Source: a virus | Taxonomy: Duplodnaviria; Caudoviricetes | Strand: one strand, 5' to 3' | IMG/VR virus record: IMGVR_UViG_3300028048_000038 | Coordinates: 128,001-192,000 of that record | DNA length: 64,000 bases | Shown: positions 4,102 through 14,780 of the stretch, in pieces | Position numbering within the stretch: position 1 is the stretch's first letter | Layout of the letters: each line of letters starts with the position of its first letter | Position numbers and translations under genes: made by a program | Notes under the pieces: model-generated | What the model was told of the DNA's origin: nothing | The model's database searches: none | The model's input: only the letters and a program-made list of their open reading frames with translations

Positions 4102-4512
4102 TTAATATATGTTAACGTAATATGTTCCTACTTGTTTCTTAGCCTTTCTTACCAAAGATAAGCCATGTTCTTTCTCACTTGGGTCATACACAAACAATAA
4201 TTCGCCTTTCTTTCTATTACGTAACCTAATGCCAAAACTATGTTGTTTTGTGATTATGGTGTCTCTGAAATATCCAACATCTATAATCTTCCATTCCATT
4301 GAACCATATAGCTCATTGCATTTATTATATTGAGTATGTATGATTTGTTCATCCAAATATATTTCTCCACCTAGAGGAAATACAATACCTTTAGCCACAT
4401 GCACTTGGTTAGCAAACCTACAACCATAGTCGGTAATTTTAACAATATCGCCTATTGAAAATTCTAAATTATCCCTAGATTGAGCACCCCATTTTGTTAC
4501 AATTATATCCAT
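4102..4512 (-). CDS. hypothetical protein
   Basis: 136-aa ORF. Confidence 0.6.
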   Translation of the reverse strand: MDIIVTKWGAQSRDNLEFSIGDIVKITDYGCRFANQVHVAKGIVFPLGGEIYLDEQIIHTQYNKCNELYGSMEWKIIDVGYFRDTIITKQHSFGIRLRNRKKGELLFVYDPSEKEHGLSLVRKAKKQVGTYYVNIY

Positions 4513-4528
4513 TATATCATCTTTTATG

Positions 4529-4603
4529 TAGCGGAGAATGGATTCGAACCATTGACCTCTAGGGCATGCCCCCTAGTGCGCTAACCAACTGCGCCACCCC
4601 GCA
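4529..4603 (-). tRNA. initiator-like tRNA-Met (CAU) with atypical anticodon loop
   Basis: 1:72 mismatch, GCGC D stem, CTAGG-GGGCATGC-CCTAG, T arm AATGG TTCGAAT CCATT. Confidence 0.65.
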
Positions 4604-4729
4604 ATTACTTATTGATAACGCTCAACAAGTAAAGCCTAAACATGTCTAGAATATACCTCAGTGTTAATGAACTTCAAGAAGGTAAAGGCCTGATTACCAA
4701 CTTGCTCTATCTCCACCAAATGTATATTG

Positions 4730-4811: not shown

Positions 4812-5786
4812 TCATAGATACTTCATCAATAGTTTATAAGCAATGAAATACTTGAATATCATCACCACAACAGCGAATAATACTACAATACCAATAAACT
4901 TCCACCAAGAAAACCAATTCCATATCTCCCTAAGATATCCCACTGTTAAACCGCCAACAGAAGCTTCGTTTTCATCCACTTGAGTGGTTATAGGTGCAAC
5001 TCCTGGAAGTGTCGTGGTGGGTTTGGAATCAGCCTCTATTGGTTTCGGAGGAATAGGCTTCTGCGGCTCATTCCTTTTATACGTGTATAGAATGGTGTTT
5101 TCGTTGAATCTTCCTTTCATTGTTGGATGTTGCATATGGAGAAACTTATCAGTATTGTTCTTCAAATAGTTATGCAACTCCTTTGCAACAACCATTCCAT
5201 CCTTATTGGTATCAGCTTTTCCTTTCAAACCATCTATCAATGCAGTAAACAAATGACTATTTCTGTCACCTTCTGTCTCGTAGCTTTCCTCATTGTTTCT
5301 AGAAGATGTGAGGACAATTACATTTTCACCAAGAAGTTTGCCGTGTTTCTGGTTTGTAAAACTGCCACTATAACAAGCATCGATGATAACTACCTTACGT
5401 CTTGCCTTACACCCACTCAGTATAGATTTAATTTCAGAGAAATTGACGTATTGGTTTCCACATTGAATATATCCATCATTGCCGTGACCGCTATAAACGA
5501 ACATAATAATGTCGTTTGGTGTACAAACTGCTGCTTGCTTTTTGAGACCATCAAGGACGTTATTACGAGTGACACCATTACCTCTCACAAGGATAACTTG
5601 ACCACCATTCTTACGATAAAGTTCTGCAAGGTCTGTCACGTCATTCTCTGGACATTCCAAGCCATCGCAATCAATGCCATAGAATAACCCATACATCTTA
5701 GCATCTACGCTGAGTGCAACAAGCAGTGTCAGTACAATCGTAACTATTCTTCTATACATCTGAGTTGTTGTTATAATCTCCCACAT
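4812..5786 (-). CDS. caspase-like (peptidase C14) protease with signal peptide and C-terminal membrane anchor
   Basis: Catalytic dyad motifs YSGHG and IDACYSG; N-terminal hydrophobic signal; Pro/Thr linker then TM helix; true start may be near 5759. Confidence 0.85.
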   Translation of the reverse strand: MWEIITTTQMYRRIVTIVLTLLVALSVDAKMYGLFYGIDCDGLECPENDVTDLAELYRKNGGQVILVRGNGVTRNNVLDGLKKQAAVCTPNDIIMFVYSGHGNDGYIQCGNQYVNFSEIKSILSGCKARRKVVIIDACYSGSFTNQKHGKLLGENVIVLTSSRNNEESYETEGDRNSHLFTALIDGLKGKADTNKDGMVVAKELHNYLKNNTDKFLHMQHPTMKGRFNENTILYTYKRNEPQKPIPPKPIEADSKPTTTLPGVAPITTQVDENEASVGGLTVGYLREIWNWFSWWKFIGIVVLFAVVVMIFKYFIAYKLLMKYL

Positions 5787-8262: not shown

Positions 8263-8577
8263 ATTTCCTTGTTTTTAAATTTCTGATGTAAAGATACGAA
8301 AAAAAGTTGAACCAACCAAATGATTAATTCAACTTTAACACTCATTAACCTTACACTTGTTCTCGGCTCTATTCACCTTGTTGTAAAAGTTAATCCTTTT
8401 CAACTTAATAGTAAATTAGATTTACCTGTATCAACCATGAAGGTATCCTCTTAACCATCAAGGAACTAGGGCAAGGGACTAATCCTTGCACCGCATTACT
8501 GCTTCATCTGCCATTTCTTACATGGCTTGCGCTTGTCTAACCTATTTCAGTATTTCAATGAATACACCAAGCCGTAG

Positions 8578-8653
8578 TGAGCATAGTAGGATTCGAACCC
8601 ACGCCTTTTACGGTCCTAGAAGCCGTTGCAATCGACCACTCTGCCATATGCCC
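8578..8653 (-). tRNA. tRNA with CUA anticodon (candidate amber suppressor)
   Basis: GGGCATA/TATGCTC acceptor, ACGGC TTCTAGG ACCGT anticodon arm, canonical T arm. Confidence 0.65.
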
Positions 8654-9469: not shown

Positions 9470-9571
9470 CCAAATTAAGAATACATCAGGACCACGAATC
9501 TTTTTTAGCTACGTTGCATCTCCATTGTAACACACAATTCTCATACTTTTTTACTTTTTTATTAATATTAT

Positions 9572-9802
9572 GTTGTATTTCATGTAATATTAATACCACA
9601 TGCAACCCCACTTCATAAAAAGGGACGTTAGGGTTAGTTGTATTTCACTGTAATACTAATACCACATACAACTTTATTCTCTTTCTCACTGTAAGGTAGT
9701 TGTTGTATTTCACTGTAATACTAATACCACATACAACTCAGATTTAAATATAACATTTAGGTTGGTGTTGTATTTCACTGTAATACTAATACCACATACA
9801 AC
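9572..9802 (-). CRISPR. CRISPR mini-array: 4 repeats, 3 spacers (30, 29, 29 bp)
   Basis: Repeat GTTGTATTTCACTGTAATACTAATACCACATACAAC (36 bp) exact at 9637, 9702, 9767; degenerate 35-bp copy at 9572 marks the trailer, so the leader is on the TnpB side. Confidence 0.93.
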
Positions 9803-9849
9803 CTATCCGACATAAGTTGCTTATTATCAGTGATTTGTAATATGTATTA

Positions 9850-10008
9850 CGTCCGAAAAATCGCTTCTTCGGTGGTAGGATGACCACTTGTCACCCACTT
9901 TTTCTGTTTCATCCAAGCACTACTTTTTAGGTTTATTACTAAACGGTCATCCATAGGAGGCTAGTCCACAGACTTTACTTTCCCACTACACATGGGTAGG
10001 CACTATTT
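9850..10008 (-). ncRNA. putative omegaRNA/reRNA-like scaffold downstream of TnpB
   Basis: Structured, more GC-rich noncoding stretch right after the TnpB stop, resembling 3' ends of TnpB elements; boundaries approximate. Confidence 0.5.
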
Positions 10009-11166
10009 TCACTGTTGTGCTTCAGTTAGAATTCTATAGCCCTCATTTTTGATATTAATTGCAGCGTTTATATCTCTATCAATACGTTCACCGCAATTAG
10101 GGCATATCCAATATCGTTCACTAAGTTTAAGGTCTTGCTTGACATATCCACAATGACTACAAGTTTTAGAGCTAGGGAAGAACCTATCAATCTCAACAAC
10201 CTTGACACCGTTCCAAGATGATTTATACTGTAGTTTGGTTTTAATCTCGTTAAACGAAGACTCTTGTATACTTTTTGCTAGGTGATGATTACTTACCATT
10301 CCTTTGACATTTAAGTTTTCAAGACATACAGCACTAGTTCTGCTATCATAAGCAATGTCGTGTGTAACCTTGTCAATGAACGCCTTCTTCCTGTTATTTA
10401 TTTTATTCTTGAATTTAGCTAGCTTCAACCTAGCTTTTTCTTTATTCCTAGAACCATTTTTCTTCTTCGATAGCCTTCTGCAAAGCATTTTATATTTTTT
10501 GTCCTCTTTGCTGTCAGTCCTCAATGAATTGTATTTAGTTCCATCACTAGTGATAATTGAATTTTTAACGCCTAAATCAATACCAATAACGGTATCATAT
10601 GTGACTTCTTTTTTTTCAAGCGGCTCTGTTGTATCCTTTACCAAAATCGAAATAAAGTATTGGTCTGACTTGTTATATGACAATGTAGCTTGCTTAATTT
10701 CTCCGTTGAATTTTCTATGAAGCCTAGCATCTATCAAACTTGTCAATTTTGGTATCTTCACCTTATTCTCAGCCCAGAACACCTTAATCCCTTGGTATGT
10801 CGTATATGACCCACTGAAACTCTTTTTTTTGAAGGCTGGACCACCAGCATCGGTTTTAACTCCTTGTTTTCTAGCTTTACAAGCCCTAAAGAAATTATTG
10901 TAGGAAGCATCCAAATATGTAGATGTCCATATTAGAGACTTTGCATCAACACTTTTAAGCCACGAGGTTTCTTCATTCTTTTTGAGAGAAGGTAATTCTC
11001 TAGCTACATTGTATTGACAACTTAAGTGCTCTCCAGTCTCTTTAAAACACTTCTTAATTTTATCAAGAGCATAATTGTAAAACCATCTATTAGCACCTAC
11101 GTTTTGTCTTATAAACTGTTTTTGCTCCTCAGTTGGATAAATTCTATACTTATATGCTCTTAACAT
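10009..11166 (-). CDS. tnpB: TnpB/Cas12f-like RNA-guided endonuclease
   Basis: RAYKYRIYPT N-terminus, RuvC-I GIDLG, RuvC-II CLENL, Zn finger CSHC/CPNC, RuvC-III DRDINAAINI; no TnpA nearby. Confidence 0.93.
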   Translation of the reverse strand: MLRAYKYRIYPTEEQKQFIRQNVGANRWFYNYALDKIKKCFKETGEHLSCQYNVARELPSLKKNEETSWLKSVDAKSLIWTSTYLDASYNNFFRACKARKQGVKTDAGGPAFKKKSFSGSYTTYQGIKVFWAENKVKIPKLTSLIDARLHRKFNGEIKQATLSYNKSDQYFISILVKDTTEPLEKKEVTYDTVIGIDLGVKNSIITSDGTKYNSLRTDSKEDKKYKMLCRRLSKKKNGSRNKEKARLKLAKFKNKINNRKKAFIDKVTHDIAYDSRTSAVCLENLNVKGMVSNHHLAKSIQESSFNEIKTKLQYKSSWNGVKVVEIDRFFPSSKTCSHCGYVKQDLKLSERYWICPNCGERIDRDINAAINIKNEGYRILTEAQQ

Positions 11167-11195
11167 AATTATTTTTTTCTAGTAAAAAAAAAAAG

Positions 11196-11250
11196 CGGAA
11201 GCTAGTTAAACCTAGAGTTGCAATCTATGTAATATTGCTGTGAGCTTCCT
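11196..11250 (-). ncRNA. ACAGCA-stem RNA carrying a bare Cys(GCA) anticodon-like hairpin
   Basis: GGAAGCT-C-ACAGCAA...TAGA TTGCAAC TCTA...AGCTTCC. Confidence 0.65.
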
Positions 11251-11255
11251 ATTTG

Positions 11256-14147: not shown

Positions 14148-14324
14148 TTTTCAAAGAACTTTTTTTCTTTTATAAAATAATCAGCTACACGAACCTCTTC
14201 AATGTACTTATGAAAGATTCCCTTCCACGTATGTTATACAGATTAATACATGACTTTTATCCTAATATAGCATAACTTTACTGTAAAAGTTTACTTCATC
14301 ATCCAACCCTGACTGATTATTAAG

Positions 14325-14780
14325 TGGACTTGCGCAGAGTCGAACTGCGGTCACAATTACCGACCCATAAAGGATTATACAAGCTTAAGAAAATTGGTGA
14401 GTGGCTTGCGCCACCCTTCCTCTCTGCCACCTCATTTTGAGAAAACGAGGAAAACTTGGGGAATGACTAGAGTCACCGATTCCACCATTTGATTATCAGA
14501 ATGTTCTACCAAGCTGTCAACAGCTACAACACACCTAAGTGTTTTGAACTAAAGCATTGCTCCCAAGGTCTCGAACCAGGAACCTTTCTTCTAATCAAAA
14601 AAAATTTGCTAGGATGTTCTGTTCCTAAGAGCCTAGCCTCTCGGCTCACGCTTACGCAGCTATAGCGTACTCGTAAACAGGAGAATCTACGTTCTCTGCG
14701 TTTATTTTTTTTGCTATTTGAAGTGTATGCCCACTGCTTGTCCTTTACCAGACGCATAACGTTCTATACCATTCAAGCCC
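14325..14780 (-). ncRNA. ssrA: tmRNA; tag peptide AENVDSPVYEYAIAA* (14652-14699)
   Basis: 5' GGGCTTG pairs with 3' CAAGTCC-A including G3:U70; terminal T arm CGCAG TTCGACT CTGCG; internal tag ORF ending YAIAA-stop. Confidence 0.88.

Follow-up and report, generated by a model that had tools for sequence, protein, structure and literature searches.

Cas12 nucleases are proposed to have originated when a fused transposon guide became a tracrRNA plus an array. In the TranC systems (PMC13565253, PMC13639567) the reRNA is split into tracrRNA and crRNA, with several origins from IS605 and IS607 TnpBs. CauTranC9 is an active phage-encoded TranC; the mean length in its clade 9 is 414 aa, and the repeats are of 38 bp (bioRxiv 10.64898/2026.03.27.714800). 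Compact type V-U and V-F systems are also known from phages, most phage systems being without adaptation genes (PMC7162821), and forty candidate V-U lineages (V-U6 to V-U45) are listed in PMC10691335. The spacers of the Cas12r-CRISPR systems of Thermus Lalka phages are reported to target competing mobile elements (bioRxiv 10.64898/2026.04.20.719267). The guides of TnpB and Cas12 are described as containing a pseudoknot, and the TAM of the IS607 nuclease CboTnpB is TGGG (10.1101/2023.11.20.567912). The II-C/VI-B arrays of Flavobacterium have 36-nt repeats, spacers of about 30 nt and a leader-distal GTTGT, and the VI-B array borrows the II-C Cas1-Cas2 in trans (PMC8092290).

The locus described here belongs to a large rumen phage and lies in a window of 64,000 nucleotides (positions 128,001-192,000 of the 409,537-bp virus record IMGVR_UViG_3300028048_000038, rated complete). 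As judged from sequence, it is likely to hold a phage-borne intermediate between TnpB and Cas12, that is, a minimal type V system of the TranC type. The features by which a TranC is recognized at this level were all found computationally: an intact RuvC triad, clade-wide linkage to an array and a split reRNA. A preliminary description had proposed a nascent TnpB-to-Cas12 intermediate. The intermediate stood, on the strength of the linkage, the covariation of the anti-repeat and a repeat that carries the pseudoknot strand; the word nascent was dropped for this locus, because the clade proteins span down to about 40% identity.

The nuclease gene and its genome

The window contains 37 tRNA genes and a tmRNA gene (14322-14780, minus strand, inside the tRNA cluster). 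A tRNA with a CUA anticodon at 8577-8653 (minus strand) is a possible amber suppressor; the genome still uses TAG stops, with no sign of code 15. Genetic codes 15 and 4 were rejected because coding cover barely rose (0.67 vs 0.69) and nine open reading frames end in TAG, and code 11 was kept for translation. The locus was present in bovine and sheep gut sequencing runs from 15 studies. We infer a Bacteroidota host from this habitat and from the motif TATATCTTTGC, which occurs 32 times in the 409.5-kb genome and which we take to be a Bacteroidota promoter motif.

The 385-aa protein matched the Pfam families HTH_OrfB_IS605, OrfB_IS605 and Cas12f1-like_TNB. Its catalytic residues D197, E283 and D365 and both CxxC motifs were invariant in 26 aligned clade proteins, in agreement with the D/E/D triad of the preliminary description. 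Residues 3-376 were colinear with ISDra2 TnpB, and the nearest folds to the predicted structure (pLDDT 82) were TnpB structures. Membership in Cas12f (V-F) was rejected on this colinearity, on the TnpB-like fold and on the score of the Cas12f2 model, 59 bits vs a cut-off of 450. The protein also scored below the cut-offs of both IS607_TnpB and IS200_TnpB.

No TnpA or cas1 had been noticed in the window, and this absence extended to the whole 409,537-bp genome, in which no Cas1, no IS607-type resolvase TnpA and no Y1 TnpA were found; nor was there a second array of this kind anywhere in it. An ordinary IS200/IS605 or IS607 mobile element was rejected, as the locus has no complete omegaRNA with a transposon right end, no TnpA and no multiple copies. 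A second, distant TnpB of 375 aa, 27% identical, lies outside the window (positions 296,657-297,784 of the record, minus strand); it has an ordinary TGTCAA-type end and is without an array. The features of the locus are listed in Table 1.

Table 1. Coordinates of the nuclease gene, the tail, the leader and the array in the window.
Feature	Position	Strand	Remarks
TnpB-sized RuvC nuclease gene (TranC-type effector)	10009..11166	-	385 aa
OmegaRNA-derived scaffold, 5' part of predicted tracrRNA	9853..10008	-	Profile matches and covariation
Nexus hairpin	9982..9996	-	Loop GTGTA (9987-9991), predicted pseudoknot with repeat 3' end
8-bp hairpin, GNRA-type loop, scaffold closure	9853..9872	-	
Anti-repeat (core 9844-9852)	9833..9852	-	Pairs with middle of own repeat
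Short leader	9803..9832	-	IHF-consensus site at 9813-9825, -23 to -11 from first repeat
Repeat 1, leader-proximal, 36 nt	9767..9802	-	
Spacer 1, 29 nt	9738..9766	-	No target found
Repeat 2, 36 nt	9702..9737	-	
Spacer 2, 29 nt	9673..9701	-	One 17-nt seed match with ATGG flank
Repeat 3, 36 nt	9637..9672	-	
Spacer 3, 30 nt	9607..9636	-	No target found
Repeat 4, degenerate terminal copy, 35 nt	9572..9606	-	

A predicted split guide RNA and a putatively reversed array

The preliminary description had seen a retained omegaRNA-like tail behind the gene. Of this, the 5' omegaRNA scaffold was indeed kept; the 3' part with the transposon end was gone, and the tail lacks the ends of TATAC[G/T]G or TTCAC type that were found in sister and outgroup loci. 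A profile built from the clade tails matched, over its 5' part only, IS607-type omegaRNAs behind mobile TnpBs (E 7e-16 to 2e-11), one of which (L083) has an IS607 TnpA upstream. The scaffold fold showed compensatory change in 23 of 36 consensus pairs, and its GNRA-type hairpin stood 49-50 nt upstream of the first repeat at all nine loci measured. In the mobile sister RNAs a 5-bp 5' hairpin bears the loop CCGTA, CAGTA or CTGTA, complementary to the RNA's own 3' end (TACGG, TACTG and TACAG, respectively), and these joint changes of loop and end are those of a predicted, compensated pseudoknot. In the array clade the nexus loop was invariantly GTGTA, and the complementary TACAAC ended every repeat, which allows four base pairs and a fifth across a bulge. 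The host integrase alone might also account for the invariance of ATACAAC. One IS605 locus (L114) shares the 5' scaffold too, so that it is the loop and end sequences that assign the RNA to IS607; the ancestry is read from the RNA because the quick protein tree does not settle which TnpB family is sister to the array clade. TnpBs with a homologous scaffold also occur in Lak megaphages (L103, L104 and L159 1470-1620, the last being Prevotella phage Lak-A1); one Lak copy has a fused IS607-type end, and no array was seen in the Lak stretches examined.

Between scaffold and leader the clade has gained an anti-repeat. In nine divergent loci its duplex with the repeat of the same locus averaged -6.3 kcal/mol vs -2.7 kcal/mol with the repeats of other loci. 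An exact permutation test of this covariation gave p = 5.5e-6 (nine loci), and a 12-locus version p = 2e-5; the loci are related, so these values overstate independence. Control segments from the leader gave p = 0.03 and 0.18 in the same test. The pairing was weak in three loci (L015, L021 and L109). Because the gained anti-repeat covaries with its own repeat, the reading of the tail as a predicted tracrRNA, and not as a whole omegaRNA, is well supported.

Four repeats with spacers of 29-30 nt had been described about 205 bp past the gene; we counted 206 nt from the stop codon to the first repeat, and three repeats of 36 nt and one of 35 nt. The first three are identical, and the fourth carries one deletion and two substitutions. 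Since this degenerate copy stands at the end away from the gene and a phased IHF-type site at the end next to it, the leader end lies on the gene side, as had been claimed. The IHF consensus occupied precisely -23 to -11 in every one of 13 leaders, scoring 7.9 of 9 vs 3.7 in shuffled leaders, where the maximum among 5000 was 5.1. IHF sites are reported for some II-C leaders, and the literature that we found supports IHF for type I-E only. From the fixed position of the site at -23 in all 13 leaders, together with the II-C/VI-B-like geometry of the array, we infer that a host II-C Cas1-Cas2 with IHF supplies the phage array with spacers. In the leader of one relative (L097 5314-5363) an apparent 3' end of a repeat, with an 18-nt stretch behind it, takes the place of the IHF site.

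On the plus strand GTTGT stands at the end of the repeat that is farther from the leader, and the resemblance of the GTTG...CAAC 36/30 geometry to II-C and VI-B arrays, pointed out earlier, was borne out by the Flavobacterium arrays (PMC8092290). This geometry probably reflects the host integrase that feeds the array and the source of the repeat, not the effector that uses the array.

In the mechanism that we propose, the nuclease unit would be transcribed on the minus strand along with the surrounding phage genes, and scaffold and anti-repeat would act as a tracrRNA. About 20 nt at the 3' side of the repeat would pair with the anti-repeat, and the last bases, TACAAC, with the nexus loop, which would restore the pseudoknot made in a fused omegaRNA with the RNA's own end. 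The spacer downstream of the repeat would then guide the nuclease to double-stranded DNA with a G-rich 5' motif, and new spacers would be inserted by the host II-C-type Cas1-Cas2 and IHF. TnpB would read the array from the strand opposite to that for Cas9 or Cas13b. Read as its reverse complement, GTTGTA gives the pseudoknot strand, and this may be the reason why an IS607-type RNA could adopt such an array.

Linkage of gene and array in related phages

A protein search returned a group at 62-92% identity, nearly all of 384-386 aa besides fragments, after which identity dropped to 47%. Fourteen clade proteins had readable DNA: the window protein, nine traced to contigs, and four distant ones (39-47%) from metagenome and IMG/VR searches. 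In all 14 (39-92% identical) the gene was followed by the conserved tail and then by a repeat; full arrays of 3-9 repeats were present at 11 loci, and the remaining three contigs stop 29 nt into the first repeat. Whether related phages keep this linkage with different spacers had been asked in the preliminary description: they do, in 14 of 14, with different repeats and mostly different spacers among the 11 full arrays. Variation between the repeats is confined to the middle; the ends are kept, and ATACAAC was present without change in all 11. The array-linked proteins formed one clade in a quick tree (SH-aLRT 100), and such an array stood at only two of 80 metagenome TnpB loci, both inside the clade. 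An alignment-based metagenome scan used generic patterns and returned mostly outgroups. Two sequencing-run contigs join position 9512 to 11251 or 11424, so that gene, tail and array are skipped together. Gene and array are thus one unit, gained or lost together, and their linkage is not chance. In run X13 a contig over 9767-9991 was deeper than the gene contigs; contig depth cannot rank expression, RNA libraries may contain DNA, and this was not counted as evidence.

A chance neighbourhood was the other reading in the preliminary description, in which a host Cas9 or Cas13b uses the mini-array and an ordinary TnpB element has inserted alongside, into its leader. Phage mini-arrays are already known (PMC10120712), and the repeat and spacer lengths, with GTTGT far from the leader on the plus strand, are like those of Flavobacterium. 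However, an exact scan with a degenerate repeat pattern, no mismatches allowed, gave no match in 185,579 prokaryotic GTDB genomes, a set from which the true host may be absent, and the repeat had no Rfam CRISPR-repeat match. From phage to phage the middle of the repeat is free to diverge, and it covaries with the tail, which is conserved and has no transposon end, and gene and array come and go together. The two observations that had been named as pointing to a host array, an array without TnpB in relatives and a repeat identical to a host type II/VI repeat, were not made: the contig joints skip both gene and array, the same exact scan found no host repeat, and the sole gene-free array copy (L004) still has the TnpB scaffold, with the gene 1.3 kb away. 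This reading is therefore largely refuted, and we regard it as hardly credible. The tail motif was also without a match in the 185,579 prokaryotic genomes (exact scan), and the absence of repeat and tail from them is in keeping with a lineage restricted to phages and mobile DNA.

Several relatives carry rearranged forms. In L003 (2231-2250) a deletion fuses the last hairpin of the scaffold to the 3' end of a repeat, with anti-repeat and leader gone; this resembles a re-fused single guide, and as it was seen in one contig an assembly error is possible. In L100 (1254-1680) the clade gene has a different C-terminus and is followed by a complete fused IS607-type omegaRNA; what is left of the original last codons comes next, and behind it stand the split tail and the array, so that this chimera combines both RNA forms. 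A 335-kb phage (G002, IMGVR_UViG_3300028888_000045; 231,500-318,100) contains the array form with nine repeats, the fused IS607-type form, two TnpBs with TTCAC ends and one partial copy, and at about 311,700-311,850 a gene-free fused omegaRNA directly before a tRNA-like sequence.

The L003 and L100 forms bear on a dual use of the locus, in which the minus strand serves TnpB and a plus-strand array RNA serves a host Cas13b or Cas9, or in which a fused, omegaRNA-style transcript is made as well. The L003 deletion and the full fused omegaRNA of L100 between gene and split tail would suit the latter, as would the TACA in the anti-repeats of L001, L007 and the window, a possible cis partner for closing the pseudoknot; and the window repeat folds into a terminal GTTG/CAAC stem. 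Yet the inner repeat fold is not conserved among the clade repeats, the cis TACA is kept in one subclade only, and all genes flanking the locus lie on the minus strand. We consider dual use improbable and retain the reading as a TnpB-to-Cas12 intermediate with a split guide.

Guides, targets and comparison with known systems

The gene-free copy in L004 consists of the scaffold and two shortened repeats beside a 114-aa gene of no known function (4460-4720 and 4859-5203). It has its own promoter motif in front and its own matching anti-repeat. Two guides, right after ATACAAC, match the adjacent gene over 17 and 16 nt, one of them at the start codon, and the targets have the 5' flanks ATGG and ATTG. 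Because the guides follow ATACAAC and are flanked in this way, they support both the orientation of the guide and a G-rich 5' motif; the TAM is probably 5' AT[G/T]G, as predicted from these two guides of L004 only, and is G-rich like that of CboTnpB. The targets are intact in cis, one possibility being that short guides bind without cutting. A homologue of the targeted gene lies at 791-1144 of the window (minus strand), with the first target intact, two tandem promoter motifs and no cassette.

Binding without cutting might be the natural role of the whole system, which would then repress genes of the phage or the host under RNA guidance. The sole clear targets, those of L004, lie in the phage's own gene and are intact. 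Three main arrays have shortened spacers of 19-21 nt, namely L004 spacer 3 (19 nt; L004 7185-7203), L001 spacer 4 (21 nt) and L015 spacer 4 (20 nt). One spacer is common, with a single mismatch, to the arrays of L001/L003 and L007/L008, phages with different repeats whose TnpBs are 92% and 76% identical to that of the window; it is either an old conserved target or the product of spacer exchange. The catalytic triad, however, is invariant, and most spacers are of full length and not the same from phage to phage, as they should be if they turn over against foreign DNA. The three spacers of the window were without a match in its own 409.5-kb genome. We judge a purely repressive role highly improbable, although the short-guide cassettes may still act by repression, and a TnpB-to-Cas12 intermediate with predicted cutting activity remains our preferred reading.

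Among 47 main-array spacers the one convincing protospacer was that of the 19-nt spacer of L004, which matches the family's own tail and scaffold at 17 of 19 positions, with the flank ATGG in some relatives and ATAG in L004's own copy. Searches with the arrays of the window and four relatives against phage and plasmid records returned only chance or tRNA matches; matches to Lak-B (E 0.8) were rejected as targets, as they lay mostly over the repeat. Exact scans of IMG/VR gave no match for spacer 1 (20 nt) or for the spacer common to several arrays, and nine matches for spacer 3 (16 nt), none of which extended. The TAM with the seed of spacer 1 had one match in IMG/VR, rejected for its 10 mismatches. 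For spacer 2 (17 nt) there was one match, with an ATGG flank that had been predicted beforehand; it was not counted, since there are mismatches at eight of the 12 distal positions and the genes of the 57.8-kb provirus are, in our judgement, of Firmicutes type. The precedent of CauTranC9 and Cas12r and the match of the L004 spacer to its own family's tail suggest that competing phages or mobile elements in the Bacteroidota host are the likely targets.

A broader joint reading is possible, though less likely than not: an undescribed, independent origin of Cas12 from TnpB in rumen jumbo phages, combined with reverse capture of a II-C/VI-B-type array and with cassettes of 16-17-nt guides that regulate the phage's own genes. 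Under this joint reading the GTTGTA end required by the integrase would be TACAAC on the other strand and would double as the pseudoknot strand, and the same intact 385-aa enzyme might serve both the array and the stand-alone cassettes. In the literature we did not find described the 385-aa size, a reversed II-C/VI-B-type array with a phased IHF site, or short-guide satellite cassettes against a phage's own gene. The lineage shows fused and split forms in one phage (G002), a chimera (L100), a re-fused deletion (L003) and a gene-free cassette (L004), so that it opens to direct tests the splitting model, the repeat's origin and the supply of spacers by a host integrase. If confirmed, a TAM so short and G-rich would have uses in editing.

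The arrays of Bacteroidota II-C/VI-B systems (PMC8092290) share with the window the 36-nt repeat, the spacers of about 30 nt and the leader-distal GTTGT; the predicted crRNA of the window, in contrast, is read off the other strand in the direction leading away from the leader, and host genomes yielded no identical repeat. IS607 TnpBs with a fused omegaRNA (CboIStron; L083, L112 and the Lak-A1 copy) have a homologous 5' scaffold, an NNGTA nexus loop, a TAC-containing 3' pseudoknot strand and a G-rich 5' motif, whereas in the window two hairpins, anti-repeat, leader and array replace the transposon right end, and the genome has no TnpA. By description, the phage V-U/V-F systems (PMC7162821) are alike in being compact, phage-encoded type V effectors with an array, and so is Cas12r of the Thermus Lalka phages, from a different host group. 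With TranC (Jin et al., Cell 2025, doi 10.1016/j.cell.2025.09.004, as described in PMC13639567, PMC13565253 and bioRxiv 10.64898/2026.03.27.714800) the window system shares a TnpB-like effector, a split reRNA and an array without cas1 or cas2; LaTranC (PDB 9jfo/9jfq), of 478 aa, aligns to the window TnpB only over residues 247-373. The TranC kind is thus already published, and we could not match the window lineage to any described one, the numbered TranC and V-U clades being known by description. CauTranC9 is like the window system in being phage-encoded and TnpB-sized, with no REC/WED expansion and a short array, and is set apart, by description only, by about 414 aa and 38-bp repeats vs 385 aa and 36-bp repeats. 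Its 414-aa clade has been called the smallest active CRISPR-associated nuclease (bioRxiv 10.64898/2026.03.27.714800); the window nuclease, whose activity is predicted, is smaller still, and its system probably represents a very early stage in the emergence of CRISPR-Cas12.
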